Source: Escherichia coli
GTDB lineage: Bacteria; Pseudomonadota; Gammaproteobacteria; Enterobacterales; Enterobacteriaceae
Direction: 5' to 3' (one strand)
NCBI RefSeq assembly: GCF_003790525.1
Contig: NZ_CP033635.1
DNA length: 64,000 bases
Below are positions 1,384 through 50,582 of this stretch, piece by piece. Within the stretch, counting starts at the first letter, position 1. The number at the start of each line of letters is the position of its first letter. Under the pieces are notes generated by a model. It made no database searches, was not told where the DNA came from, and was given only the letters and a program-made list of their open reading frames with translations. Position numbers and translations under genes: made by a program.

Positions 1384-1577
1384 TTAATTGCCTTATAAAT
1401 ATTTAGATAAGAGAGATAATATTTTAAATGAAAAAATGATCCGTCACTATACACATTTTGCTTATAAACAAACCGAAATCATTCACACTCCGAATAATTC
1501 CTGCGACTTAAAATATAAATCGCAGGAAGCGATTTTAATTACCCGCTCTACCACTGGCGCAGGATATAAACTCTCAC

Positions 1578-3884
1578 CTACATTCCATAACGTTCAGAAA
1601 TAGCAGCATGCTTCTCTTCATTCGCCCCGGCTTCTTTGGCAAGACGCCACCAGCACAACGGATGTTCCCAGTCAGCGGTCAATTCGTGCAAGGTCTTATC
1701 GATATCACCTTTAGAAACTGAACGCGGCGCGCTGATAACAAAGTAGAACGCGGGCAGCGGCTGTGCATCTTCTCCCTGCTGGCTGTCCGTTAACGTATAG
1801 TCCTCGTTACTGTTGCTCCAGTAGTACCAGTTTCGTTCACGGAGCGCCTCACGGAAGGCATTAAACTGTTCTTCACCAGGCATGACACCTTCGCAGAACC
1901 AGGACTCGCCGTACTCAGTCGGGATAATGGTTTGCAGGCAGGCATAAAGTGGCGTGAAATTCTTCCGTTCTTCCTCATCCTCTGGTTGGGTGTTCAATAT
2001 TTCCGCATCGAATACCACAACTTCATCAACATGTTGCGGATAATCGGTCCGGTAAGTTGGCTCAATGATCCTTGCTGTTACCGGCCCAATACGTTGAGCA
2101 TAGTAATAGCGGTATTCATAATTTTCCCGGAAGCGAATGTTTAGCAGTCCCCATTTTTCGTCGATAAAACCTTCACCTTCCGTAAGTTCGATTTCCAGTT
2201 CAGCTGCAATAGCACGAACCAAATCCCATTGTTGCAGGATGCTGGCGGTCGCCATGATATCCCACTGGATATTACGAATATCTTCTTCACGGCTAATCAT
2301 CAGTTGCTGCAATTGTTGTAAATAATCCAGCTGTCGATCCCAGGCTTCCTGTTTTTGTGCTGCCCAGGAGCACATGCGATAAACGCCGATCCACTCACGC
2401 CCTTTTTCGTTTTGCAGCAACTGGTGCCCAATCGACTCGAGTTCACTCCAGTCTTCCTGTTGGTTGATCACTCGCGCACGGAACCACAAGGCCATATGTA
2501 GCAGCCCCGCCTGTTCATACTGCTTCGCCAGGTGCTCAATGGTTTGCAGATCGTCACGGTGGAGCAATAAATCCAACAGATCGAAGCAAAGACCATTATC
2601 TTCCTGGATGTGGCTTTCGACGTAGCGTTGCAGAAGTTCAATCGACTCATCAATCGCATTACAGGCGTTTAACGCATTGACCAGTTTGCCCAGCAATTCC
2701 GCATCATCTGGCGCGTTCAGGTAAGCGCGGCGGAATGTTTCGACGTCTTTTTCTGGATCTGGCTGCGTTTCTTCATCGCTATTTTCAGGTACTTCTACAA
2801 CCGGACGAGCAAGCAACTCTGCTTCTTTGGCGGCGATTTTTTCACTCAGTTCGAGAAACTCACGATCAACCCCCAGTAACACGCGTAATTTTGGCATGTG
2901 TCGCTGGGCCAGTTTCATCGCTATTTTGGCAACCCAGACGGATTCACGCTCCAGCGCCAGGGTAATTTGCAGTTTCGCCAGATCAACCACTTTGCGGTGC
3001 GCTCCGGCCTGCGAGCGGTGCTCCAGCATTTTTTGGATGATGCGCGCCAGTTGCCAGTTGTTTCTTTGTGGATGACGGGGAAGTAACACAGTAATGATTT
3101 TCAGCCATGACCCCCATGAATGGGGAGTCAGATCTGACCAACGCGGTAATTCCTCCCAGACTTCTTCGTCCTGCCCGCATAACGCCATGATGTACAGTTT
3201 TTTGAGGTGATTACTAATGCGGTCGCGGCCCCAGTAATCATTGGCTTCTGTCAGCTCATCAATCAGTATGCGTGCTTCATCATAACGCTGAAGTTCAATC
3301 AGAATATCGGCACGAGTATAAAGTAATGCATCAATATCATCTTCCCCGGCTGCTTTAACTGCGTCGATTTGTCGATCCAGATAAGCCAGTGCCTCCTCTA
3401 TTCTTTTGGAATCTATCAGTGCACTGGCATATTCAGTGGACAAACACTGAAAACAGCTCCAGGTCGGATCAATCCGCGCGATGGTTTCTTCACATACCGC
3501 CATACGTTCATTCGCCCAGCCAGGTGCATCAATATTTTCGTAGCAGGCGGATAAATCCTGGGTAACGCAGATAGATTGTGGGCAATCTTTTGTCTCTTCC
3601 CGGTGCGCTTTTTCAAACAGCGCTACCACGTCTGGCAGCACCTTTTCACCTTCTTCATAGTTAGTCAGGCGATGACGCATTTCCCAGTGACCAATAAATA
3701 TTTCCAGCCACGGATTTTTTGCCACCTGGGTAAGTGCTTTTACTTCAGGTAACAGCGAATCGCACTTTTCCATTTGCAGGTGCATAACGCCTTCCGAATA
3801 ATCATCGATAAGTTGCGGAATATACTCCTGCCCGGCATCGCGTAACTCCTTAGTATATTTGTGATACCACTCCCATATATCCAT
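1578..3884 (-). CDS. Hypothetical 768-aa protein, second gene of an inserted two-gene operon, with no recognisable catalytic motif
   Basis: Long uninterrupted ORF. Its ATG is 2 nt after the stop of the upstream Hsp90-like gene. SD-like aagga lies 9 nt upstream. Absent from the K-12 yiiG-fdhD junction. Confidence 0.8.
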   Translation of the reverse strand: MDIWEWYHKYTKELRDAGQEYIPQLIDDYSEGVMHLQMEKCDSLLPEVKALTQVAKNPWLEIFIGHWEMRHRLTNYEEGEKVLPDVVALFEKAHREETKDCPQSICVTQDLSACYENIDAPGWANERMAVCEETIARIDPTWSCFQCLSTEYASALIDSKRIEEALAYLDRQIDAVKAAGEDDIDALLYTRADILIELQRYDEARILIDELTEANDYWGRDRISNHLKKLYIMALCGQDEEVWEELPRWSDLTPHSWGSWLKIITVLLPRHPQRNNWQLARIIQKMLEHRSQAGAHRKVVDLAKLQITLALERESVWVAKIAMKLAQRHMPKLRVLLGVDREFLELSEKIAAKEAELLARPVVEVPENSDEETQPDPEKDVETFRRAYLNAPDDAELLGKLVNALNACNAIDESIELLQRYVESHIQEDNGLCFDLLDLLLHRDDLQTIEHLAKQYEQAGLLHMALWFRARVINQQEDWSELESIGHQLLQNEKGREWIGVYRMCSWAAQKQEAWDRQLDYLQQLQQLMISREEDIRNIQWDIMATASILQQWDLVRAIAAELEIELTEGEGFIDEKWGLLNIRFRENYEYRYYYAQRIGPVTARIIEPTYRTDYPQHVDEVVVFDAEILNTQPEDEEERKNFTPLYACLQTIIPTEYGESWFCEGVMPGEEQFNAFREALRERNWYYWSNSNEDYTLTDSQQGEDAQPLPAFYFVISAPRSVSKGDIDKTLHELTADWEHPLCWWRLAKEAGANEEKHAAISERYGM

Positions 3885-3885
3885 T

Positions 3886-5721
3886 TTATTTTCCTTGATT
3901 AATTAAGACAGGAATAACCTGAGTAAAATCTTCCAGTGCCTGGTGTAAATCCCACTGCTGTTCTTTATTACCGCTGGAGCACAAAATCACTTTCAGCGAT
4001 TTTAATAAGCGTAATGCCGCTGCGGGCTGTTGCTGGTGTTGTAATGCCGTCACCAGTTGCATGATGCAAGGGTTATTAAGGTTGATGTATAAACTTGAGG
4101 TTTTCGTTTTTTGGATTTGTGAAGTAAATTGCCGCGCCAGCATTAACGCTGCGGTGCTGATGCGTTTATCTGCGTCATCCTGTTCGAGAATTTGTTTTAA
4201 TTCTGCTTCGCGGTCTGGCGTAACCACTAACGGTAAAACGGCGGGTTCGAAGCGGGAGATAATTAATTGCTCGCCATCGCAGAGATGCTCTTCCAGATAA
4301 GCTACCTGCTCTTCGGGTAATTCCGCCAGGCTGAACAACTGCTCATTACCTGTTTGCGTACCGACTTCGACAATCCGGCAGTGATATAACAGCGCCCAGC
4401 GACGTAAAAATGGCACGACGGCATAGCGATCGCCACGGGCAACGGGCCGTTGCAGAATGTGGAACAACATCTCTTCAAAACCGCCGTCGCGGCTTAACAG
4501 AATATGAATGCTGTTATTAACGCGTAAATCCTTCGCCAGCAACGCCCCTTTTGACGTTGGCACCTGCAAGCGATCTTTGAGCAAATCAAACAGACGGTCA
4601 TCACATAATGCCGCACCGAGCAACGCTTCGTTGTGGCGCATTAATACACGCCGCCAGATTTCTGGCTGATTTTGTGCGAGATCGGACAAACCAGAAATCA
4701 GCGCCTCTTTTAACGCCTCCTGCACCGCAACCCAGGTTTCGTCCCGCTGGAGATCTTCCCGGCTCGCCGTAGGCGTTAGTTTCGATGACTCAATCACGCC
4801 GCCAATAAATCCGGCCCAGGGAGGTAACAACTCACGCGCTTCATCATCCAGTAACATACCGCGCAAAAACAGCGACAGGTTGCGGTTATCGCTGGTGCCG
4901 TAGGTTGCGCCATCCTGAATCCATAAAATCCCAACCGCGTCGCTCATCCCCACGGGCACCACCGGAATGGTGCAAATCGGTTCGAAGGAGGATTCAAACT
5001 GGGCGGCAAAGGCGAGATTTTTACGCTGTACCAGCGCGCGGTGCATGGTTACGCCTTCGGGGGCAACTTCACGCCACGGTGGTTGAAGTTTATTTACCGG
5101 CTCGCTGGCATCGCCGACATAGACCGGTTCGTGCAGCAATATACAGTAGCGGGAAAGAACGCGGTTCAGCAAATTGTTACTCGCCAGATGGCTGTACTCT
5201 TCTTTGAGCGTCAGAATCACCTGCGTACCCGTTTCCGAGGACTGATGCGGCGTAACGGTATATTTTTGCCCGTCGGTAGAGTGGTATTTCCAGCTCTGAT
5301 CCGGCGTTTGCCAGGATGTGGTCAACACCGTGACCTCTTTCGCCAACACAAAGGCCGACAAAAAACCGAGGCCGAACATACCAATTAAACCGGTGTTGTC
5401 ATCCTGCTGGCGCAACATTCGGGTATAACCCACGCCTACTGTCGCCAGGAAGCCGTGAATTTCACTTTCTGTCAGTCCAGCGCCAGTATCGCTAATAGTG
5501 ATAGTGGACTTCGCCACGTCTGCCACCACACGAATCGCGTTATCCTTTGGTGCATCGGGCTGCTCAATCCTGCGGCGAACGATCGCATCATGGCCGTTCT
5601 GCACCAGCTCGCGCACGGCAACCACGGGAGTGGAGTAAAGATGCTTACTGAGCACCTCAATTAAGCCGTTTAAATTAACTTCTGTAGAATATGAACTACC
5701 AGGTAACTGTAATGTACTCAT
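3886..5721 (-). CDS. Hsp90/HtpG-like GHKL (Bergerat-fold) ATPase, 611 aa, first gene of the inserted operon
   Basis: The N-terminus carries GHKL motifs: ELVQNGHDA (N-box, nt 5584-5610), ISDTGAGLT (D/G1 box, nt 5470-5496) and GMFGLGFLSAF (G2 box, nt 5350-5382). These resemble HtpG ELISNASDA / ISDNGIGM / GQFGVGFYSAF. Not present in K-12 at this locus. Confidence 0.85.
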   Translation of the reverse strand: MSTLQLPGSSYSTEVNLNGLIEVLSKHLYSTPVVAVRELVQNGHDAIVRRRIEQPDAPKDNAIRVVADVAKSTITISDTGAGLTESEIHGFLATVGVGYTRMLRQQDDNTGLIGMFGLGFLSAFVLAKEVTVLTTSWQTPDQSWKYHSTDGQKYTVTPHQSSETGTQVILTLKEEYSHLASNNLLNRVLSRYCILLHEPVYVGDASEPVNKLQPPWREVAPEGVTMHRALVQRKNLAFAAQFESSFEPICTIPVVPVGMSDAVGILWIQDGATYGTSDNRNLSLFLRGMLLDDEARELLPPWAGFIGGVIESSKLTPTASREDLQRDETWVAVQEALKEALISGLSDLAQNQPEIWRRVLMRHNEALLGAALCDDRLFDLLKDRLQVPTSKGALLAKDLRVNNSIHILLSRDGGFEEMLFHILQRPVARGDRYAVVPFLRRWALLYHCRIVEVGTQTGNEQLFSLAELPEEQVAYLEEHLCDGEQLIISRFEPAVLPLVVTPDREAELKQILEQDDADKRISTAALMLARQFTSQIQKTKTSSLYINLNNPCIMQLVTALQHQQQPAAALRLLKSLKVILCSSGNKEQQWDLHQALEDFTQVIPVLINQGK

Positions 5722-5997
5722 TTTTCAATACTCATAATCCATCACCTACTATTGAAAATACATCGCTGTTTTTACAACCGGTGCAAGGTTTGTTATTTCA
5801 TTCACTCATCGGAAACATTTATTTATTGACGCGATGATTAAAACAAAATGTCTTATATAAATAATGATTAATTCTTAAAGGATTAATGCGACTGGAGTAT
5901 ATCGATATAACCCGGAGTTAACGAGATAATTTCTTGTGGTGAAATTATTATTTGAATGCTGAATAATATATTGAGGATTATTTAATAGAAAAATAAA

Positions 5998-6030
5998 ACC
6001 GCAATCCAGAATCAGAATTGCGGTATTTCT
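5998..6030 (-). terminator. fdhD rho-independent terminator hairpin
   Basis: aaaaccgcaatcc..agaattgcggtatttc stem-loop directly downstream of the fdhD stop. Confidence 0.6.
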
Positions 6031-7060: not shown

Positions 7061-10000
7061 ATGCAGGTCAGCAGAAGGCAGTTCTTTAAGATCTGCGCTG
7101 GCGGTATGGCAGGCACCACGGCAGCGGCACTGGGTTTTGCACCCAGCGTAGCACTCGCGGAAACCCGGCAGTATAAACTGCTGCGCACCCGCGAAACCCG
7201 TAATACCTGCACCTATTGTTCCGTAGGCTGTGGGCTGTTGATGTACAGCCTCGGTGACGGAGCAAAAAACGCCAAAGCATCTATCTTCCATATCGAAGGT
7301 GACCCGGATCACCCGGTCAACCGCGGAGCACTTTGTCCGAAAGGCGCTGGCCTGGTGGATTTCATCCACTCCGAAAGCCGCCTGAAGTTTCCGGAATACC
7401 GTGCGCCAGGTTCTGATAAATGGCAACAAATCAGTTGGGAAGAGGCGTTTGATCGCATCGCCAAACTGATGAAAGAAGACCGCGATGCGAACTACATTGC
7501 GCAAAACGCCGAAGGCGTGACTGTTAACCGCTGGCTCTCCACCGGGATGCTGTGTGCTTCCGCGTCGAGCAACGAAACCGGCTATTTAACACAAAAATTC
7601 TCCCGCGCGCTGGGTATGCTCGCGGTCGACAACCAGGCGCGTGTCTGACACGGACCAACGGTAGCAAGTCTTGCTCCAACATTTGGTCGCGGTGCGATGA
7701 CCAACCACTGGGTCGACATCAAGAATGCCAACCTCGTCGTGGTGATGGGCGGTAACGCCGCTGAAGCTCACCCGGTCGGGTTCCGCTGGGCGATGGAAGC
7801 CAAAATTCACAACGGCGCGAAGCTGATTGTGATCGATCCTCGCTTTACACGTACGGCGGCGGTGGCTGACTACTATGCCCCTATTCGTTCCGGGACTGAC
7901 ATTGCTTTCCTGTCAGGCGTATTGCTGTACCTGCTGAACAATGAAAAATTCAACCGCGAATACACCGAAGCCTATACCAACGCCAGCCTGATCGTGCGTG
8001 AGGATTACGGCTTTGAAGATGGCCTGTTCACCGGCTACGACGCGGAAAAACGCAAGTACGATAAATCCAGCTGGACCTACGAGCTGGACGAAAACGGCTT
8101 CGCCAAACGCGATACCACGCTGCAACATCCGCGCTGCGTGTGGAACTTGCTGAAACAGCACGTTTCCCGTTATACGCCAGATGTGGTTGAAAACATCTGT
8201 GGTACGCCGAAAGACGCGTTCCTGAAAGTCTGCGAATACATCGCAGAGACCAGTGCTCACGATAAAACTGCCTCGTTCCTTTACGCGCTCGGCTGGACGC
8301 AACACTCCATTGGTGCGCAAAACATTCGTACGATGGCGATGATCCAGCTGCTGCTCGGCAACATGGGGATGGCAGGCGGCGGCGTTAACGCCCTGCGCGG
8401 TCACTCCAATATTCAGGGGCTGACCGACCTGGGGCTGCTGTCGCAGAGTCTGCCAGGTTACATGACGTTGCCAAGCGAGAAGCAGACCGATCTGCAAACT
8501 TACCTTACCGCCAACACGCCGAAACCACTGCTGGAAGGCCAGGTTAACTACTGGGGCAATTACCCGAAATTCTTCGTCTCCATGATGAAGGCCTTCTTTG
8601 GTGATAAAGCGACGGCGGAAAATAACTGGGGCTTTGACTGGTTGCCGAAGTGGGATAAAGGCTACGACGTCCTGCAATACTTCGAGATGATGAAAGAGGG
8701 CAAGGTCAATGGCTATATCTGCCAGGGCTTTAACCCTGTTGCCTCATTCCCGAACAAAAACAAAGTGATCGGCTGTCTGTCGAAACTGAAGTTCCTCGTG
8801 ACCATCGACCCGCTGAACACTGAAACCTCTAACTTCTGGCAGAACCACGGTGAACTGAACGAAGTTGACTCGTCGAAGATCCAGACCGAAGTGTTCCGTC
8901 TGCCATCGACCTGCTTCGCGGAAGAGAACGGTTCAATCGTCAACTCTGGCCGCTGGTTGCAGTGGCACTGGAAAGGTGCGGACGCCCCGGGGATTGCGCT
9001 GACTGACGGCGAGATCCTCTCCGGTATCTTCCTGCGCTTGCGCAAGATGTATGCCGAACAGGGTGGCGCGAACCCGGACCAGGTGCTGAACATGACCTGG
9101 AACTACGCCATTCCGCATGAGCCATCTTCAGAAGAAGTGGCGATGGAGAGTAACGGTAAGGCGCTGGCCGATATTACCGATCCGGCAACCGGTGCGGTTA
9201 TCGTCAAGAAAGGCCAACAACTTAGCTCGTTCGCCCAACTGCGCGATGACGGTACAACCTCCTGTGGCTGCTGGATTTTCGCCGGTAGCTGGACGCCGGA
9301 AGGCAACCAGATGGCGCGTCGTGATAACGCCGATCCGTCTGGCCTCGGTAACACGCTGGGCTGGGCATGGGCATGGCCGCTTAACCGCCGCATTCTGTAT
9401 AACCGCGCCTCCGCAGATCCGCAGGGTAACCCATGGGATCCGAAGCGTCAGTTGCTGAAATGGGACGGCACTAAGTGGACCGGCTGGGATATTCCGGATT
9501 ACAGCGCAGCGCCTCCGGGCAGTGGCGTCGGGCCGTTTATCATGCAGCAGGAAGGCATGGGGCGTCTGTTTGCCCTCGATAAGATGGCGGAAGGTCCGTT
9601 CCCGGAACACTACGAGCCGTTTGAAACGCCGCTGGGAACTAACCCGCTGCATCCAAACGTTATCTCGAACCCGGCTGCGCGAATCTTTAAAGACGACGCC
9701 GAAGCATTGGGTAAAGCCGATAAGTTCCCGTATGTCGGAACCACCTATCGTCTGACCGAGCACTTCCACTACTGGACCAAACACGCGCTGTTGAACGCGA
9801 TTTTGCAACCAGAGCAGTTTGTGGAAATCGGGGAGTCGCTGGCGAATAAACTTGGCATTGCCCAGGGCGATACTGTGAAAGTCTCCTCCAACCGTGGCTA
9901 TATCAAAGCCAAAGCGGTAGTGACCAAACGTATTCGCACGCTGAAAGCAAACGGCAAAGATATCGATACCATCGGTATTCCGATTCACTGGGGCTATGAA

Positions 10001-10111
10001 GGTGTTGCGAAAAAAGGCTTTATTGCCAATACGTTGACGCCATTCGTCGGTGATGCGAACACGCAGACGCCGGAGTTTAAGTCCTTCCTTGTGAATGTGG
10101 AAAAGGTGTAA
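7061..10111 (+). CDS. fdoG: Formate dehydrogenase-O major subunit FdoG (selenoprotein; in-frame UGA at 7646-7648 read as Sec)
   Basis: Tat signal MQVSRRQFFKICAGG. The two track ORFs 7061-7648 and 7697-10111 are in the same frame, separated only by a TGA. Total 1016 codons, equal to E. coli FdoG. Confidence 0.95.
7646..7690 (+). promoter_or_regulatory. Selenocysteine UGA plus downstream SECIS-like stem-loop
   Basis: tgacacggaccaacggtagcaagtcttgctcc contains the hairpin gcaag..cttgc just 3' of the UGA, similar to fdhF/fdnG SECIS context. Confidence 0.6.
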
Positions 10112-29165: not shown

Positions 29166-30569
29166 ATGTCTGACCATAATCCACTGACATTAAGACTGAA
29201 TCTGCGGGAAAAAATCGCCTATGGTATGGGCGACGTCGGTTCGAATTTAATGCTCTGCATCGGTACTCTGTATCTCCTCAAATTTTATACCGATGAATTA
29301 GGGATGCCTGCTTACTATGGCGGGATTATCTTTCTGGTGGCGAAGTTTTTTACCGCATTTACCGATATGCTCACCGGATTTTTACTCGACTCGCGGAAAA
29401 ATATTGGGCCTAAAGGCAAATTTCGTCCCTTTATTTTATATGCAGCGGTTCCGGCGGCGTTAATTGCAACGCTCCAGTTTATCGCCACCACCTTTAGTTT
29501 GCCGGTTAAAACGACGATTGCCACCGCACTGTTTATGATGTTTGGACTTTCATACAGTCTGATGAACTGCTCGTATGGTGCGATGATCCCGGCCATTACC
29601 AAAAACCCCAATGAGCGCGCGCAGCTCGCGGCTTACCGCCAGGGTGGTGCAACCATAGGGCTATTGATTTGTACCGTGGCGTTTATTCCGTTGCAGTCGC
29701 TTTTTTCTGACTCAACCGTCGGTTATGCCTGTGCGGCACTGATGTTCTCCATTGGCGGCTTTATTTTTATGATGCTGTGCTACAGAGGCGTCAAAGAGCA
29801 TTATGTGGACACCACGCCAACCGGACATAAGGCCAGTATTCTCAAATCATTTTGCGCGATATTTCATAATCCACCTTTGCTGGTATTGTGCATTGCTAAC
29901 CTGTGTACTCTGGCGGCATTTAATATCAAACTGGCGATTCAGGTCTATTACACCCAGTATGTGCTGAATGATATTAATTTATTGTCGTGGATGGGATTTT
30001 TCAGTATGGGATGCATCCTCGTCGGCGTATTACTGGTGCCATTAACTGTAAAATGTTTTGGTAAAAAACAGGTTTATTTAGCTGGCATGGTGCTATGGGC
30101 GGTTGGTGATATCCTGAATTATTTCTGGGGAAGTAACTCTTTCACTTTCGTCATGTTCTCTTGTGTCGCCTTTTTTGGCACGGCCTTTGTAAACAGCCTG
30201 AACTGGGCACTGGTGCCAGATACCGTAGATTACGGTGAATGGAAAACCGGTATACGTGCCGAAGGTTCTGTTTATACCGGTTATACCTTCTTTCGTAAAA
30301 TTTCAGCCGCACTTGCTGGCTTCTTGCCAGGCATTATGCTGACGCAAATCGGTTATGTTCCCAACATCGCGCAAAGCGATGCGACATTACAGGGTTTGCG
30401 TCAGCTCATTTTTATCTGGCCTTGTGCGCTGGCAATGATTGCTGCATTGACGATGGGGTTCTTTTACACGCTCAATGAGAAACGGTTTGCACTGATTATT
30501 GAGGAAATTAACCAACGCAAAAATAAAGAAATTGAGACAGAAGAAAAAACGGCTTCCGTAACGTTATAA
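29166..30569 (+). CDS. yihO: Sulfoquinovose/GPH-family transporter YihO
   Basis: 467 aa from MSDHNPLTL.., paralog of YihP. Synteny. Confidence 0.9.
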   Translation: MSDHNPLTLRLNLREKIAYGMGDVGSNLMLCIGTLYLLKFYTDELGMPAYYGGIIFLVAKFFTAFTDMLTGFLLDSRKNIGPKGKFRPFILYAAVPAALIATLQFIATTFSLPVKTTIATALFMMFGLSYSLMNCSYGAMIPAITKNPNERAQLAAYRQGGATIGLLICTVAFIPLQSLFSDSTVGYACAALMFSIGGFIFMMLCYRGVKEHYVDTTPTGHKASILKSFCAIFHNPPLLVLCIANLCTLAAFNIKLAIQVYYTQYVLNDINLLSWMGFFSMGCILVGVLLVPLTVKCFGKKQVYLAGMVLWAVGDILNYFWGSNSFTFVMFSCVAFFGTAFVNSLNWALVPDTVDYGEWKTGIRAEGSVYTGYTFFRKISAALAGFLPGIMLTQIGYVPNIAQSDATLQGLRQLIFIWPCALAMIAALTMGFFYTLNEKRFALIIEEINQRKNKEIETEEKTASVTL

Positions 30570-30635
30570 ATGTCAATAGCCGCTATTTCCATCCTGGTGG
30601 GTGGCGGCCTCCCTACGCTTAAAAATGGACTTATT

Positions 30636-31328
30636 ATGAAAAAGATTAATGCAATAATTCTATTATCCTCTCTGACCTCTGCCTCGGTATTTGCTGGCGC
30701 ATACGTCGAAAACAGGGAGGCATATAATCTCGCCTCCGATCAGGGCGAGGTTATGCTACGTGTGGGTTATAACTTCGATATGGGCGCGGGTATTATGTTA
30801 ACCAATACCTACACCTTTCAGCGAGAAGATGAACTCAAACATGGATATAACGAAATCGAAGGTTGGTATCCGTTATTCAAACCAACCGATAAATTAACCA
30901 TCCAGCCCGGTGGCTTAATTAATGATAAGAGTATCGGTTCGGGTGGTGCTGTTTATCTGGATGTTAACTACAAATTTACTCCATGGTTTAACCTGACGGT
31001 ACGTAATCGTTTTAACCATAATAACTACAGCTCAACCGATTTGAACGGTGATCTGGATAATAATGACAGCTACGAGATTGGCAACTACTGGAACTTTATT
31101 ATTACCGATAAGTTCTCATATACCTTTGAACCGCATTATTTTTATAACATTAATGATTTCAATAGCAGCAATGGTACGAAGCATCACTGGGAAATCACTA
31201 ACACCTTCCGTTATCGCATTAATGAGCACTGGTTGCCCTATATTGAATTGCGCTGGTTAGATCGCAACGTAGAGCCGTACCACCGCGAGCAAAACCAGAT
31301 TCGTATCGGGACGAAGTATTTCTTCTGA
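30636..31328 (+). CDS. ompL: Outer-membrane porin OmpL
   Basis: 230 aa from MKKINAIILLSSLTSASVFA (signal peptide) with a C-terminal ..IGTKYFF beta-barrel motif. Confidence 0.9.
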   Translation: MKKINAIILLSSLTSASVFAGAYVENREAYNLASDQGEVMLRVGYNFDMGAGIMLTNTYTFQREDELKHGYNEIEGWYPLFKPTDKLTIQPGGLINDKSIGSGGAVYLDVNYKFTPWFNLTVRNRFNHNNYSSTDLNGDLDNNDSYEIGNYWNFIITDKFSYTFEPHYFYNINDFNSSNGTKHHWEITNTFRYRINEHWLPYIELRWLDRNVEPYHREQNQIRIGTKYFF

Positions 31329-31334
31329 TGTAAA

Positions 31335-31420
31335 ACTGCCGGATGCGGCGAAAACGCCTTATCCGGCCTACGGTTGATACGGTTTCCGTTGGCCGGATTA
31401 AGCCACATCCGGCCATTAAT
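31335..31420. repeat. REP element pair
   Basis: gccggatgcggcgaaaacgccttatccggcctac ... ggccggattaagccacatccggcc. Confidence 0.75.
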
Positions 31421-32685
31421 TAAGCTTCAGCCGCCAGCATCTCTTTCTTACGTTGGCTAATACGCTTAACCAGCATTACGGAAACCACCGCACCACAGAA
31501 TGCGAAGCAGGCCATAATGCCAAACACGATTTTGTAGCCAATAATCCCCGGATTTAAATCCAGAATGTAGCCATACAGACTGAAGCAGAACATCGCCGGG
31601 GCGTAACCAATAAAGCTACCCAACGCCATCGCCGCGCCTGTTTTATTTTCAGCAATTTTTGCTTCGCCGATAGGTGCAAAAAATACGGCTCGCTGTGTAA
31701 AGACTATCGCGCCAAAGCCCAGCGTACATGCCATCCCTAAATAGACCGGCATACTTTCGTGCGGCAGCATAATCAACAGTACGAGCGCAGCGGTACTGAT
31801 GATAAAGGTGTAGCATAGATATTTACTCGGCGATTTCAGGATCTTATCTGAAATCATGCCACCAATCGGTCCACCAATCATTTTCAGACAGTATTGGTTA
31901 ATGATGCCGTAAGCCCCCACCAGCGCAACAGGCAATAGATAGATGTTTTTCAGGAATGGAATGAAGAATGTCAGGCCACAGTAAACCGCGTAAACGAAGA
32001 AGACGTTGAAAGCGATAAGCCAGATAGTTTTGTCTTTCAGCACCGAGGTCATACTGGTGTTTTTCGATGCTCCGTCTTCTTTTTTCACCTCAACGGACGG
32101 TGCCTCTTCTTTGTCATTCAGAACAAAGAAAATGATAATGCCTACGGCAATCACAATAAGGGAATAGAACCAGATGCCTGCTTTAAAACCCAATAAGCCA
32201 CTGCCAAACCAGGTAAATACTGCCAACGCAGAAAATGCCACCACGGTATCGACAATGCCACGCCCTGTTTCGAAGAAGCCAAACAACCGACCTTGTTGTT
32301 CGCTATTGCCCAATCGACTTACCGACTTGAGCAAGACCGGCCAGTTCATCATGTCGCAAGTAACGCCAAATAGCGCCCAGACAAAGAGGATGCCCCAATA
32401 CCCCGGCATTGTCGTCAAATAAACACCCAGTAATCCTGTCGCAATGAGTGAGAATGACATGGTGTATCTGCGCGGTAGTTTATCGGCAAAATAAATAGAC
32501 AGAAAAAAGCCCACTGTCGTGACAAATGAGTTTACCGACATAGCATTACCAATTTGACCATTGGTCAAATGGAAATATTCCTGCATCGGGATATAAAACG
32601 CATCTTTCAGCGACGGTAATTTATAAATTGTACCGCCACACAGTGTTAATAGACTAAATAACGCCCATTTCTTTTTCGTGAGCAT
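31420..32685 (-). CDS. yihN: MFS transporter YihN
   Basis: 421-aa polytopic membrane protein. Synteny. Confidence 0.9.
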   Translation of the reverse strand: MLTKKKWALFSLLTLCGGTIYKLPSLKDAFYIPMQEYFHLTNGQIGNAMSVNSFVTTVGFFLSIYFADKLPRRYTMSFSLIATGLLGVYLTTMPGYWGILFVWALFGVTCDMMNWPVLLKSVSRLGNSEQQGRLFGFFETGRGIVDTVVAFSALAVFTWFGSGLLGFKAGIWFYSLIVIAVGIIIFFVLNDKEEAPSVEVKKEDGASKNTSMTSVLKDKTIWLIAFNVFFVYAVYCGLTFFIPFLKNIYLLPVALVGAYGIINQYCLKMIGGPIGGMISDKILKSPSKYLCYTFIISTAALVLLIMLPHESMPVYLGMACTLGFGAIVFTQRAVFFAPIGEAKIAENKTGAAMALGSFIGYAPAMFCFSLYGYILDLNPGIIGYKIVFGIMACFAFCGAVVSVMLVKRISQRKKEMLAAEA

Positions 32686-32786
32686 AACATCCCCTAAGCG
32701 ATTTTTAAAATCACTGTTTTAAAGGCAATAAGATACCGACCATTCATATGGAATGGTTTTATTAACAGCGTATGAGTTAAAACTTA

Positions 32787-33767
32787 TTAGTGGTTCAGAA
32801 GATGGTTTGCCTCTTGTTTGATTTGTTGTAGTACGTTACGCACATGATTTATCTGATTAATTGCATCTTCTTTTTCTTTACGTAACCGCGCATCCAGTAA
32901 ATGATTTTCTGGCAATGGTGTTTCACTCATCTGGCGATAAGGGATCCACGGATTATCATCTTCGTCTTCAAAGCGGAACGCCGGCGCATAGTAATCAACC
33001 TCTTCTTCCAGGCCATATGCCGTCACCTGCGGCTCATCATCACCCAGGCAGATAAGGTGCGTTAATAACGCTTTGAACGGCATATCACCCTGACCTGAAA
33101 TACAGGCTTTATGACCCAGGCCACCCTCTTCTTTAACGATCAAGGCATCTTTGATATGGACCTGGGTAATATGCGGTGCCATCGTTTTTAAAGCGTCGAT
33201 GGGATGCTCATTTGCATTGATCATGTTCGCAAAATCAAACAGTAAGGAAAGAGATTCCATCTCACTTTCTTTGACCAGCGACACCAGCTCATGGCTTTTT
33301 AAATCTTCATGCTGTTCGATCGTAAAAGTCAGGCCGCTGTCCTGATACGTTTCTCGTACATAGGCAATGTCGTTAGCGATAATCGATAATACATCGCGCA
33401 AATTACCTTCATAACGCGGATAAAAACGTACGGAGGATGCCCCAGTTTTCAACGCGATGGCGACGGCTTCGTCAATAGATTTTTTATCTGAGGCGCTGGT
33501 TTCAATATGAATATCAAGGTTCAGACGGCGGGCTTTATCCCCAAAGGCAGAGAGTTCTTTATCGTCCATATTACCAAGAGAAAAACGCTCTCCATCCAGA
33601 ACATGGATTTTGACGCCACGTAGATTATTTTCACTTGCGATATCAAGTAAATCAGCAGGCAACACTCTTTCCAGTCGCATATTTAAATGAAAGGCATAAG
33701 CATGTAAATAAAGAGGAAGAGTGTCGACACGTTGTAGAATCTTTCTTGCGTTATTTATTGTCACCAT
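32787..33767 (-). CDS. yihM: Sugar-phosphate isomerase/epimerase (TIM-barrel xylose-isomerase-like) YihM
   Basis: 326 aa. Synteny. Confidence 0.85.
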   Translation of the reverse strand: MVTINNARKILQRVDTLPLYLHAYAFHLNMRLERVLPADLLDIASENNLRGVKIHVLDGERFSLGNMDDKELSAFGDKARRLNLDIHIETSASDKKSIDEAVAIALKTGASSVRFYPRYEGNLRDVLSIIANDIAYVRETYQDSGLTFTIEQHEDLKSHELVSLVKESEMESLSLLFDFANMINANEHPIDALKTMAPHITQVHIKDALIVKEEGGLGHKACISGQGDMPFKALLTHLICLGDDEPQVTAYGLEEEVDYYAPAFRFEDEDDNPWIPYRQMSETPLPENHLLDARLRKEKEDAINQINHVRNVLQQIKQEANHLLNH

Positions 33768-33774
33768 AAAACAC

Positions 33775-34485
33775 CTACAGATTAATGATGAGGTCTACGG
33801 CCTCAAATCGCCAATATTCAATATCTATCTGGACAATATTGCCCTGCTGGTCGGCGCGATGCTTTTCAATTAAGATCGCTGGCATACCCGCAGAACCGCC
33901 AAGATACTTGCTGATATCGCCCGGCATTCTGACGGGTTTGAAAATCAATTTTTTTACTACCGTCTCTTTTTGGTAGCACTTTTCCCAGACTGCAGAAAAT
34001 GAGTGGTTTTCAAGTTGTTCAATAAAACCCGGGGCAACTTCAGGATTAATATATGTTTCGTGATAGAAAACTTTATGTCCTTCCAGCGCCCCCCAGCCGG
34101 TGATGCGATAGAGTTCAGTTGATGGTGTCACTGCAATCAGTGGCGCGAGCGTCTCGGGAATATCGCTGGTACGGTTTTTCTCGGTAAACCCCCAGGAAGG
34201 CTCTCGTCCTTGCTCAATTGCGGCCCGCTGAAAGCTCGCTGACAGCTCCGGACTGTAATTAAATCGCGGCTGGGTCACGAACCACCCCTTACGATCCTTA
34301 CGGAAGATTTTGGATTCTGCCTCGAGGTTCAACAACGCCTGGCGCAGCGTCATACGTTTAATGCCCAGCAGTTCTCCCAGCTCTCTTTCTGAAGGGAGTT
34401 TTCCACCCGGCGTGGTGATGCCATCTTTCAACCACCGATCCAGTTTCTCTTTTGCATTTTCTACGGTGGATTGATTCTCCGCCAT
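33775..34485 (-). CDS. yihL: GntR-family transcriptional regulator YihL
   Basis: 236 aa with an N-terminal GntR HTH and a UTRA-like C-terminus. Confidence 0.85.
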   Translation of the reverse strand: MAENQSTVENAKEKLDRWLKDGITTPGGKLPSERELGELLGIKRMTLRQALLNLEAESKIFRKDRKGWFVTQPRFNYSPELSASFQRAAIEQGREPSWGFTEKNRTSDIPETLAPLIAVTPSTELYRITGWGALEGHKVFYHETYINPEVAPGFIEQLENHSFSAVWEKCYQKETVVKKLIFKPVRMPGDISKYLGGSAGMPAILIEKHRADQQGNIVQIDIEYWRFEAVDLIINL

Positions 34486-47948: not shown

Positions 47949-48176
47949 CTTTGTGCATAAATTATTTACATCACTTTTAATTTATTATCATGCTTTTTAC
48001 AGCATGATGTTTATCTTTGTTTTTCATGCAGTTAAAAATAAAGCCATCCCTAATAATTGAGATAATGGGATTTTTTCTAATGTGGATAGATATGAATTAT
48101 TTTTCTCCTTAAGGATCATCCGTTATTTGGGTCGTTTTCTGCTAAAATCTGCGCCTTGCGCTTCTTTAGCGCACTG

Positions 48177-49112
48177 TCTATGGCTAACCTTTTGAATAAA
48201 TTCATTATGACGAGAATACTCGCTGCGATAACCCTTTTGCTGAGTATCGTATTGACCATTTTGGTCACTATTTTTTGTTCCGTCCCGATCATCATTGCCG
48301 GGATTGTAAAACTATTGCTACCTGTGCCAGTCATTTGGCGAAAGGTTTCGCGTTTTTGTGATTTTATGATGTATTGCTGGTGTGAAGGTCTGGCGGTATT
48401 ACTGCATCTGAACCCACACCTGCAATGGGAAGTTCACGGGCTGGAAGGGTTAAGTAAGAAGAACTGGTATCTGCTTATTTGTAACCACCGTAGTTGGGCA
48501 GATATTGTCGTACTGTGCGTGCTGTTTCGTAAGCACATTCCGATGAATAAATATTTCCTCAAGCAACAGCTGGCCTGGGTGCCATTTCTTGGCCTGGCGT
48601 GCTGGGCGCTGGATATGCCGTTTATGAAGCGTTATTCCCGCGCTTATTTATTACGTCATCCGGAGCGACGTGGTAAAGATGTTGAAACCACTCGGCGTTC
48701 TTGTGAAAAGTTTCGCCTGCATCCCACCACCATTGTCAATTTCGTTGAAGGCTCCCGTTTCACGCAAGAAAAACATCAGCAAACCCACTCCACTTTTCAA
48801 AACTTGTTGCCACCAAAGGCGGCAGGCATTGCGATGGCGCTAAATGTACTGGGTAAACAATTCGATAAACTGCTTAATGTTACGCTGTGTTATCCGGACA
48901 ATAACCGTCAGCCGTTCTTCGATATGTTAAGCGGTAAACTGACGCGAATTGTCGTACATGTGGATTTGCAGCCTATTTCCGATGAGTTACATGGCGACTA
49001 CATCAATGACAAAAGCTTTAAGCGCCATTTTCAGCAATGGCTGAACTCACTGTGGCAGGAAAAAGACCGGCTTCTGACGTCGTTGATGTCATCACAGCGG
49101 CAGGACAAGTAA
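48177..49112 (+). CDS. yihG: Lysophospholipid/glycerol-3-phosphate acyltransferase family inner-membrane protein YihG
   Basis: About 311 aa from [14 protein letters not shown]. PlsC-type HxxxxD motif CNHRSWAD. Confidence 0.9.
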
Positions 49113-49152
49113 GTTTTACTCGCCTCTGAATGAGCAGAGGCGAGTGAGTATT

Positions 49153-50582
49153 TTAATGAACAAAACGTCCGGCACGAGACATAAATTCTTCTTCGCTCAT
49201 CTCCTGTCCGTTAAAAACAACTTTACCCGGTGTATAACGCAGCTGCAGCGAGGCGGTATTGTTGTCAATCGTGATTAACTGAAACATCTGACCTAATGTC
49301 ATCATCCCGCTGATTTGTTTATCAGCCTGCTTTTGCGCTTTTTCCGCATCCATTCCTTCAGATAAATTAAGCTGTTTTGCGGTTTCTGTGACGACATTAA
49401 GCGGTAACTTCACATCAAAATTGAGCGATTTAATATCTTTGTTTGTGGATGATGAAGATTTGGCGGGGTCGGCAATACTGATATCCAGATTGGCATTTAG
49501 TTCGCCGAGTGCGTTCTTCCATCTTACCGGTTGTTTAATGGTCGGCTCACTTTTTTGTAATAACGGTAAATACTCTTTGAACAATGCAGCATTCACTTCT
49601 TGCAGAGCAACTTCATCGTTTGCTAACTCAGGGTGTGCAGCAAGCTGCTTCTGCATCGCAATGTTATACTGGATGATAAATTGGCGCACCGCTGAGGGAT
49701 CAATAGATTCAGCAATCAATGACCACTCACCACTACCGAGTTGCTGATTCCCTTTTATTAACTTATCAAGTTCGTAGGTCAGATTGACATTGATATAATC
49801 TTTGTCTTTAACGCGATCCAGCCTGGTTTTTGCAACGAAAGCATCGATTTGGGCAACGACTTCCCCCTGGTTGATAATATTAACCTGATTAAATTTCGAC
49901 TCGCTTTCACCAACCGGAAATTTCTTTTCTTCTAATCGTGTCAGAGAATCAAAGGTAAAAATTTTCGCCGTTACTTTGTTCATTGGTGAAAATTGCAGAA
50001 CAATATCTTCGACTTTGCCTTCAATATCCAGGTTAGACAATGAACTACCATCACCATTAAAAGTAAACTGGCCCTTACCAAAGGAAAACTTTCCATACTC
50101 TGCAGGGGCAACATCTAATGTCGTGGAGAATGAGCCACCAAACGCGAACCTCAATGTCGCTTCCACGGGCGATTTATTTTTCGCGGCGATAAATAGCGGT
50201 TGTGTCAGTTCATTATTCACTAAGTTCACTTTTGCCGCTGCCAGTGCCGGGATGACATTACCATGCATTAACATTGTGATGGGCAACGGACCGTGCTCAA
50301 CATCCACATCAAATGCAACTTTCTGGCCTGGCTTGATATTGAGATCGGGTGCACCGTTATCAAATGTTATTTGCATTTGAAAATGAGAATTAAAAAAGCC
50401 TTTGTCAAAGTTTTTATAACTTAACGTCATATCGTAGGCATGTTCACCTTTTTTTTAGCATCGTTAAAATCTTTAATAAACTTTTCGACACCAGGCTGAA
50501 TTTGCGTACCTGTGTACCATGTGCCACCACCCCAGATTACGGCTAACGCAACAATAACACCTGTAGCTGACTTACGTATCAT
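49153..50582 (-). pseudogene. yihF: yihF (DUF945 family) disrupted by a -1 frameshift in an A8 run at 50448-50455
   Basis: Track ORFs 50427-50624 (..FNDAKKKVNMPTI*) and 49153-50430 (MTLSYKNFDKGFF..) are in adjacent frames and overlap as ATGA. Inserting one A in gctAAAAAAAAgg gives a continuous 476-aa YihF (..DAKKKGEHAYDMTLSYKNF..). Confidence 0.7.

Follow-up and report, generated by a model that had tools for sequence, protein, structure and literature searches.

The window, a stretch of 64,000 nucleotides of Escherichia coli DNA, contains on its minus strand two adjoining genes. The first, located at 3886..5721 with the stop codon included, codes for a protein of 611 aa (WP_000105771.1) that is currently annotated merely as 'ATP-binding protein'; the open reading frame was present as described in the initial annotation. 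The second gene, located at 1578..3884, codes for a partner protein of 768 aa (WP_000355938.1, 'hypothetical protein'). The stop codon TAA of the first gene is separated by 1 nt from the ATG of the partner gene, and an AAGGA Shine-Dalgarno sequence was found at 3892-3896; this spacing together with the AAGGA suggests translational coupling. The promoter must lie in the AT-rich intergenic region upstream of the first gene (5722..5997, minus strand), in which promoter scans detected neither a sigma-32 or sigma-54 consensus nor a strong one for sigma-70. The bicistronic unit ends with a terminator-like hairpin 43 nt past the partner stop codon (1517..1535, minus strand), and on its other side it is bounded by the terminator-like hairpin belonging to fdhD, the next gene upstream (5998..6024, minus strand).

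The N-terminal part of the 611-aa protein (approximately residues 1-205; 5107..5721, minus strand) was identified as a GHKL/Bergerat ATP-binding domain by profile matches, motifs and alignments. The three GHKL motifs named in the initial annotation lie exactly at the residues given there (ELVQNGHDA at 38-46, ISDTGAGLT at 76-84 and GMFGLGFLSAF at 114-124). The catalytic E38, the Mg-binding N42, D45 and the adenine-contacting D78 were assigned from the alignment; the G1 box comprises D78-G82 and the G2 box G114-F120. The proposed HMMER search of the HATPase_c families yielded a match to Pfam HATPase_c_3 with an E value of 1.6e-9, and the resemblance far exceeded chance. Pfam HSP90 was matched with an E value of 3e-8 (residues 274-353), TRAP1 and HtpG were matched at about 5e-30 in a phmmer search of the PDB sequences, and BLASTP gave 26% identity to E. 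coli HtpG over 364 aa with an E value of 1e-30. Counting by eye in the BLASTP alignment, the ATP lid lacks about 5 residues relative to that of HtpG.

Because the initial search for homologues returned only near-identical sequences from Escherichia, the family profile was built without the E. coli sequence. In the resulting 78 family members, which are about 45% identical, residues E38, N42, D45, D78, G80, G82, G114, G117 and G119 were invariant. An ATP site that is intact and invariant throughout the family favours a competent ATPase over a decayed copy, as the initial annotation had proposed.

The same annotation had recognized no middle-domain or C-terminal features of Hsp90 past about residue 250, and the protein was read as an Hsp90-type GHKL head on a non-Hsp90 body, a new architecture comparable to MORC, MutL or GyrB. 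The BLASTP similarity to HtpG is indeed confined to residues 20-357, and the cut-offs of both NCBIfam Hsp90 equivalogs were missed. The Pfam HSP90 match, however, lies entirely past residue 250, the alignments with TRAP1 and HtpG reach residue 357-359, and the match to Hsp90 obtained with hhalign extends to residue 398 at a probability of 99.9. Profiles, alignments and the AF2 model define an Hsp90 middle domain of approximately residues 206-480 (4282..5106, minus strand), which carries the catalytic loop P317-T-A-S-R321-E322 and, nearer its start, a PPW motif (P215, W216) that is invariant. The segment ASREDLQ, which includes R321, aligns with LSRELLQ of TRAP1 and VSREILQ of HtpG. R321 and E322 were invariant in all 78 sequences, and R321 was near-invariant in alignment A2. 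In other Hsp90s the catalytic-loop arginine is R336 (HtpG) or R380 (Hsp82).

The remaining C-terminal alpha/beta domain (approximately residues 481-611; 3886..4281, minus strand) was delimited from the AF2 model and the profile PRK14083 and is closed by two long helices (567-581 and 592-610). BLASTP revealed no direct sequence similarity of this domain to HtpG, and the last ~210 aa could not be aligned. Its match to Hsp90 is based on the PRK14083 profile and the predicted structure, and in its predicted fold only, it appears to be the counterpart of the Hsp90 dimerization domain. An acidic or MEEVD-like C-terminal tail was present in none of the 78 family members, the tails being variable. Conservation was similar in all sub-domains of the protein (0.56-0.67).

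The AlphaFold2 (AF2) model of the 611-aa protein (pLDDT 85.4, pTM 0.79) was compared with known structures using Foldseek, as the initial annotation had recommended. Each of the best 50 matches was a full-length Hsp90, and none was a MORC, MutL or GyrB protein. Superposition on full-length HtpG, Hsc82, TRAP1, Hsp90-beta and GRP94 gave TMq values of 0.56-0.71 over 640-680 columns, with 0.71 for GRP94 and 0.69 for HtpG (9a6t_B; E value 4e-39, 671 alignment columns); for HtpG, TRAP1, Hsc82 and GRP94 the TM scores were 0.64-0.71. In its predicted fold the protein is thus collinear with HtpG from end to end, an outcome that the initial annotation had named as refuting its reading. The best NCBIfam match was PRK14083 ('HSP90 family protein'), which aligned to residues 13-571 with 288.5 bits; since this score is below the cut-off of 455 bits, the protein is not a PRK14083 equivalog. 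Two further family members reached 282 (P0229) and 241 bits (P0283), and eight second-tier relatives, whose alignments span the entire HtpG profile, reached 227-400 bits. The recognized middle domain, with its catalytic arginine loop, and the superposition on full-length Hsp90s identify the protein as a full-length Hsp90 paralog without a foreign body. The composite architecture is therefore largely refuted and very unlikely to be correct.

The protein had also been described as not being a second copy of htpG. This holds in the sense that it is no recent duplicate, as the HtpG equivalog PRK05218 aligned only to residues 14-385 and with only 197.5 bits against a cut-off of 371 bits; it does not hold for the remainder of the protein, which is also Hsp90. 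The 611-aa protein belongs to a deep-branching clade of bacterial Hsp90 paralogs, apart from canonical HtpG. Of 5426 E. coli genomes, 5424 contain htpG; in E. coli SMS-3-5 the paralog almost certainly exists alongside the canonical gene.

The AF2 model of the 768-aa partner had a pLDDT of 92.8. Its most conserved segment comprises residues 1-160 (3405..3884, minus strand), as judged by conservation within the family, and in this segment H66, C101, P102, Q103, C106, D110, D119, C144 and C147 are invariant. The four cysteines form a motif that may represent a metal or redox site. The segment is followed by residues 161-562 (2199..3404, minus strand), and the two stretches together make up two TPR-like helical solenoids (residues 1-359 and 377-562), which were assigned by Pfam, AF2 and structure comparison and are connected by a low-confidence linker (residues 360-376). 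Residues 579-768 form a compact alpha/beta domain in the AF2 model (1581..2150, minus strand); no Pfam or PDB-sequence relatives of this domain were found, and a profile search of the PDB gave matches at chance level only. Searches of Pfam, NCBIfam and PHROGs with the partner yielded generic TPR matches alone. The length of the partner is almost constant across the family (750-790 aa), and effector domains have not been exchanged. These features characterize the partner as a TPR protein of the sensor or scaffold type, and they draw attention to a conserved domain of ~190 aa without an assigned fold family and to a candidate cysteine-based switch. The labels 'ATP-binding protein' and 'hypothetical protein' understate the locus, which codes for a paralog of the Hsp90 family together with the TPR protein that is its cognate partner.

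The paralog gene adjoined a gene for a partner of ~765 aa at 91 of 92 loci, and at 85 of 85 loci the partner gene was located directly downstream of the Hsp90 gene. The loci with the pair belonged to Gamma- and Betaproteobacteria, Myxococcota, Acidobacteriota and Fibrobacterota. The pair was likewise found in Archangium and in three metagenomic lineages, and its order was swapped once (L091). The linkage was also observed when the search started from divergent partners; next to one divergent partner (L095) no Hsp90 gene was present within 5 kb. The genes flanking the pair were unrelated between taxa.

In the genus Escherichia the order yiiG-partner-hsp90-fdhD is syntenic in other species, and the same order occurs in Superficieibacter. 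On this sequence evidence the pair in Escherichia is ancestral at yiiG-fdhD and vertically inherited. A recent horizontal island was considered and rejected, as the junctions contained neither repeats nor mobile genes, sister species showed synteny and the divergence was like that of the flanks. About 95% of E. coli have lost the pair, indicating that the module is dispensable there. It seems to be near-core in Xanthomonas, in Stenotrophomonas and in P. aeruginosa, where 2871 sequences fall into one cluster.

A pair consisting of an ATPase and a repeat protein could also serve in immunity or conflict: the TPR solenoids would detect a protein or peptide of an invader, the Hsp90-like ATPase would replace a STAND NTPase as the NTP-driven switch, and the unassigned alpha/beta domain of the partner would be the effector. 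The distribution speaks against this function, since vertical, syntenic inheritance in Escherichia and Superficieibacter and the near-core status in the three other genera were accompanied by housekeeping neighbours in nine lineages, with no mobile or defence genes. The near-invariant length of the partner and the lack of effector swaps are unlike diversifying immune systems. The partner matched no family of PADLOC-DB 2.0, and the 611-aa protein gave only weak matches of its N-domain, to TmtA (5.7e-6) and REase_II. The EAD1/TIR-fused relatives formed a separate clade. A role in immunity is accordingly regarded as a weaker, rather unlikely alternative.

The partner from Pseudomonas aeruginosa (P0137) is 42% identical to that of E. 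coli and is encoded in the same arrangement, beside genes of a bra-type ABC transporter. The P. aeruginosa genes appear to be PA1068 ('Hsp90-family') and PA1069 (hypothetical protein), which are probably the orthologous pair. The PA1069 protein has been detected in proteomes and its gene is reported to share an operon with an Hsp90 gene (PMC4053335), and the level of its mRNA decreased about 4-fold at 46°C (PMC4957987). This decrease and the absence of a heat-shock promoter consensus at the E. coli locus fit poorly with a classical heat-shock chaperone. PA1069 was annotated as 'uncharacterized' as of 2026, and a search of the literature found no functional study of the paralog or the partner, both of which occurred in omics lists only.

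Taken together, the paralog is probably an intact full-length Hsp90 that forms one functional unit with its TPR partner, the latter most likely being a dedicated co-chaperone or adaptor and alternatively an obligate client. Judging from the Hsp90 fold, the paralog would act as a homodimeric, ATP-driven clamp. ATP would enter the Bergerat pocket, where N42 would coordinate Mg and D78 would contact the adenine; the N-domains would then close, and R321 of the middle domain would complete the active site. E38 would activate water, and hydrolysis would reopen the clamp. Paralog and cytoplasmic 768-aa partner would be co-transcribed and probably translationally coupled, and the partner, presumably by binding to the paralog, would select the substrates or gate the ATPase as a dedicated co-chaperone or adaptor.

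If the partner is instead the obligate client, the plainest form of this explanation places the function wholly in the partner, which would be a large, multi-domain, metal-containing protein that requires a private Hsp90 in order to fold or to be loaded with its cofactor. The 1:1 linkage and the possible translational coupling would fit a dedicated maturation factor, the invariant cysteines are suggestive of a metal site, and the partner possesses a unique conserved domain. Specific large clients, NRPS megaenzymes among them, are reportedly maintained by bacterial HtpG (bioRxiv 10.1101/2025.07.01.662645). However, a stable, regular repeat protein predicted with a pLDDT of 92.8 does not appear to be obviously folding-challenged, TPR solenoids are typical interaction scaffolds, and Pfam, NCBIfam and PHROGs identified no enzymatic function in the partner. 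A plain client is therefore considered rather unlikely, and a dedicated co-chaperone or adaptor is the preferred function of the partner. The near-universal linkage to a TPR gene hints that some bacterial Hsp90s have dedicated partners, and the pair, which occurs in environmental Escherichia as well as in P. aeruginosa, Xanthomonas and Stenotrophomonas, offers a simple two-gene system in which a partner-regulated Hsp90 could be dissected by genetic and biochemical means.

With HtpG (group A) and mitochondrial TRAP1 the paralog shares the three-domain fold, the ATP-site residues and the catalytic arginine of the middle domain. It is about as long as HtpG (611 versus 624 aa) and likewise has neither a charged linker nor a MEEVD tail. 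Unlike HtpG, it scores below the equivalog cut-off, has a shorter ATP lid and has no detected heat-shock promoter, and it is near-universally paired with a large TPR protein. Other GHKL ATPases, in which a transducer domain of the ribosomal S5 fold follows the GHKL head (MutL, MORC, GyrB), did not occur among the best 50 Foldseek matches, and the sacsin model NF047352 (P_loop_sacsin) gave 30 bits against a cut-off of 50 bits. As a deep-branching second Hsp90 beside group A, the paralog resembles HtpG groups B and C (hsp90B/hsp90C) as these have been described. Chen et al. 2006 assigned the gammaproteobacterial sequences to groups A and C (PMC1525184; PMC3708813), and the excerpts of PMC1525184 and PMC3708813 make no mention of a linked TPR gene. 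According to Press et al. 2013, obligate co-chaperones of Hsp90 were not known from bacteria (PMC3708813).

The pair is also reminiscent of the eukaryotic Hsp90-TPR systems (Hop/Sti1, PP5, FKBP51/52, Sgt1, Tah1), in that an Hsp90 ATPase is tied to a TPR protein, here by gene linkage. In eukaryotes the docking site for TPR co-chaperones is the MEEVD peptide at the C-terminus of Hsp90; as none of the 78 family members has such a tail, this docking mode is inapplicable to the paralog. Bacterial Hsp90, to our knowledge, is usually said to work without co-chaperones. Tentatively, the locus could represent a bacterial Hsp90 with an obligate, operon-encoded TPR co-chaperone distributed over at least five phyla, in which the four cysteines would form a metal or redox switch and the unassigned alpha/beta domain would contact either clients or the ATPase. 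If this possibility is true, the assumption of a bacterial Hsp90 without co-chaperones would be overturned, and the Hsp90-TPR partnership would have arisen outside the eukaryotes, independently or ancestrally, by non-MEEVD docking. The partner showed no homology to the eukaryotic TPR co-chaperones past the generic TPR fold, and compared with them it is far larger, combines two solenoids with a cysteine site and a domain of its own, and shares an operon with its Hsp90.

The window was identical in sequence to the chromosome of E. coli SMS-3-5. The open reading frame at 3886..5721 (-) encodes a protein of 611 amino acids (RefSeq WP_000105771.1, annotated as 'ATP-binding protein'). The reading frame and motifs described in the initial annotation were confirmed, with ELVQNGHDA at residues 38-46, ISDTGAGLT at 76-84 and GMFGLGFLSAF at 114-124. 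Pfam HATPase_c_3 matched with an E value of 1.6e-9, TRAP1 and HtpG chains matched at about 5e-30, and BLASTP with E. coli K-12 HtpG gave 26% identity over 364 residues (E 1e-30). At the sequence level the likeness to Hsp90 is highly significant. The catalytic Glu E38, the Mg-coordinating N42, D45, the adenine-contacting D78, both glycine boxes and R321/E322 were invariant in 78 homologues with about 45% identity, and conservation was alike in all four sub-domains (0.56-0.67). The invariant active site and the even conservation support the earlier suggestion of a competent ATPase. Some Escherichia entries list the protein with 614 aa. A mini-ORF encoding MSIEK (ATG AGT ATT GAA AAA TGA) at 5722-5740 (-) overlaps the start codon by ATGA.

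The ATPase was thus correctly described as intact, but the body of the protein is not unrelated to Hsp90, and the earlier view that Hsp90 features are absent beyond about residue 250 did not hold. The Pfam HSP90 model covered residues 274-353, and pairwise alignments with TRAP1 and HtpG reached residues 357-359. In these the catalytic loop (VSREILQ in HtpG, LSRELLQ in TRAP1) was aligned with P317-T-A-S-R321-E322-D-L-Q. With hhalign, the family profile matched HtpG up to query residue 398 and HtpG residue 413 (probability 99.9%), and positions 8-562 of the 604 in PRK14083 (NCBIfam 'HSP90 family protein') corresponded to residues 13-571. For more distant relatives, the alignment covered the whole of the HtpG model. 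An AlphaFold2 model calculated from the alignment of the 78 diverse homologues was confident (mean pLDDT 85.4, pTM 0.79). The best 50 Foldseek matches of this model in the PDB were all full-length Hsp90s, including HtpG in the DnaK-HtpG model 9a6t_B (E 4e-39, TMq 0.69, 671 alignment columns), Hsc82, TRAP1, Hsp90-alpha, Hsp90-beta and GRP94 (TMq 0.71), while no MutL, MORC or GyrB structure was among them. This argues that the protein, as modelled, is a complete N-M-C Hsp90. A GHKL head on a non-Hsp90 body was rejected on the basis of these structural matches and the middle-domain sequence matches. The phage family phrog_32952, of unknown function, matched residues 127-558 in the middle and C-terminal region (E 1.4e-19), so some phages or prophages appear to encode Hsp90-like proteins.

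The canonical HtpG model scored only 197 bits against a cut-off of 371, and canonical HtpG identity was rejected; PRK14083 scored 288 bits against a cut-off of 455. The view that the gene is not a second htpG copy was upheld in this respect, although the protein is still a complete Hsp90 paralog. Canonical htpG was found in 5424 of the 5426 complete E. coli genomes, and the 611-aa protein is therefore a second, deep-branching Hsp90 paralog.

The adjacent gene at 1578..3884 (-) encodes a 768-aa TPR-repeat protein (WP_000355938.1, 'hypothetical protein'). Its ATG lies one base past the stop codon of the Hsp90 gene and is preceded by an AAGGA Shine-Dalgarno sequence. Terminator-like hairpins just 3' of the partner gene (1535..1517) and just 3' of the upstream gene fdhD (6024..5998) bracket the two-gene unit. 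In a scan with one genome per species, 452 genomes had a relative of the Hsp90 paralog, and 80 loci were retained. In these and five loci fetched earlier (85/85) the partner was directly downstream on the same strand, with a gap of 0-133 nt except for one of 650 nt. These loci came from Holophaga (Acidobacteriota), a Fibrobacterota MAG, and Beta- and Gammaproteobacteria. The pairing also occurred in members at about 45% identity from Archangium violaceum (Myxococcota) and three metagenomic lineages, with the genes adjacent but in reversed order in one Deltaproteobacteria contig. Two of the three most divergent partners (about 30% identity) had the Hsp90 gene directly upstream. At the third, L095 (5001-7274; 30% identity), no Hsp90 paralog was present within 5 kb; it was the sole unpaired locus among 92, and its neighbours were two histidine kinases and a 608-aa lipoprotein. 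The pair was thus present in 91 of 92 loci with flanking genes that were housekeeping in character and unrelated between taxa, which is strong comparative evidence that the two proteins form a self-contained functional unit. One record titled Nocardiopsis yanglingensis (L084) agreed with the Stenotrophomonas maltophilia loci in both match identity and coordinates; this match, unexpected in an actinomycete, suggests contamination or mislabelling of the assembly.

The partner family was conserved over its full, near-constant length of 750-790 aa in Escherichia, Klebsiella, Cronobacter, Pseudomonas, Xanthomonas, Stenotrophomonas, Acinetobacter, Rhodocyclaceae and Parabeggiatoa. The very confident AF2 model (pLDDT 92.8) consisted of helical repeats (aa 1-359), a low-confidence linker between aa 359 and 377, further helical repeats (aa 377-562) and a confident, conserved compact alpha/beta domain (aa 579-768; window 1581-2150 (-)). 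For the latter, neither a Pfam match nor PDB-sequence relatives were found, and it could represent an unassigned fold family. Conservation peaked in the N-terminal 160 residues, where H66, C101-P-Q-x-x-C106, D110, D119 and C144-x-x-C147 were invariant. This His/Cys pattern (aa 66-147) may be a metal (zinc) or redox site, and the spacing of its Cys residues recalls that in the zinc switch of Hsp33.

The pair was present in only 253 of the 5426 complete E. coli genomes, and in K-12 the yiiG-fdhD interval is an empty site. The order yiiG-partner-hsp90-fdhD was found in E. ruysiae, E. whittamii, cryptic Escherichia lineages and the genus Superficieibacter, and there the nucleotide divergence of the pair was about that of the flanking genes. 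Near-identical proteins occurred in E. fergusonii and E. marmotae. The shared synteny and flank-like divergence show that the module is ancestral in Escherichia and was deleted from most E. coli; a recently acquired island was rejected on the same grounds. Elsewhere in the window, three stretches with G+C clearly below average (0.41-0.45), at 14001-16000, 30001-34000 and 48001-50000, are possible further accessory segments. The formate dehydrogenase alpha-subunit gene (7061-10111 (+)) was split by a stop codon into two in-frame ORFs, 7061..7648 and 7697..10111. Genes of the fdoG/fdnG type have a UGA-selenocysteine codon, and the split is consistent with this expected biology; a pseudogene was rejected.

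No functional study of either protein was found in the literature, and no sigma-32, sigma-54 or strong sigma-70 consensus was found upstream of the E. coli operon. The P. aeruginosa partner orthologue, which we take to be PA1069, adjoins bra-type ABC transporter genes. PA1069 was detected as a protein and was described as apparently operonic with an Hsp90 gene and as responding to calcium and/or biofilm growth with induction (PMC4053335). Its mRNA decreased about 4-fold upon heat shock (PMC4957987), and it was still uncharacterised as of 2026 (PMC13411936).

We infer that the paralog most likely would act as an ATP-driven, Hsp90-type dimeric clamp working with its cognate TPR protein. This partner would be a dedicated adaptor or co-chaperone, or else the obligate client of the clamp. 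An immune or conflict function was suggested by sensor-like TPR matches of the partner and by second-tier Hsp90-like relatives of greater length (845-927 aa, about 30% identity), which carry extra modules. One of these (P0333) carried an N-terminal Effector-associated domain, EAD1 (E 3e-22), and two (P0337 and P0353) had weak C-terminal TIR-like or nucleoside-deoxyribosyltransferase matches. Against such a function in the present clade, the pair had no PADLOC matches, was vertically inherited, lay in housekeeping neighbourhoods, was near-core in several genera and had a partner of invariant architecture. The longer proteins suggest that conflict systems have recruited Hsp90-type ATPases, which would form a separate clade; neither Hsp90 nor GHKL ATPases are mentioned in the paper defining EADs.

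For the chaperone clamp, the MEEVD-type docking of TPR proteins on eukaryotic Hsp90 cannot apply, because the C-terminal tail was acidic in none of the 78 family members. The gene itself belongs to a known kind, the bacterial Hsp90 paralogs, of which deep-branching clades have been described as HtpG groups B and C or hsp90B/hsp90C (PMC1525184, PMC3708813). Its near-obligate pairing with a large TPR protein carrying a Cys motif and a novel domain appears to be previously undescribed and is of genuine interest for chaperone research.
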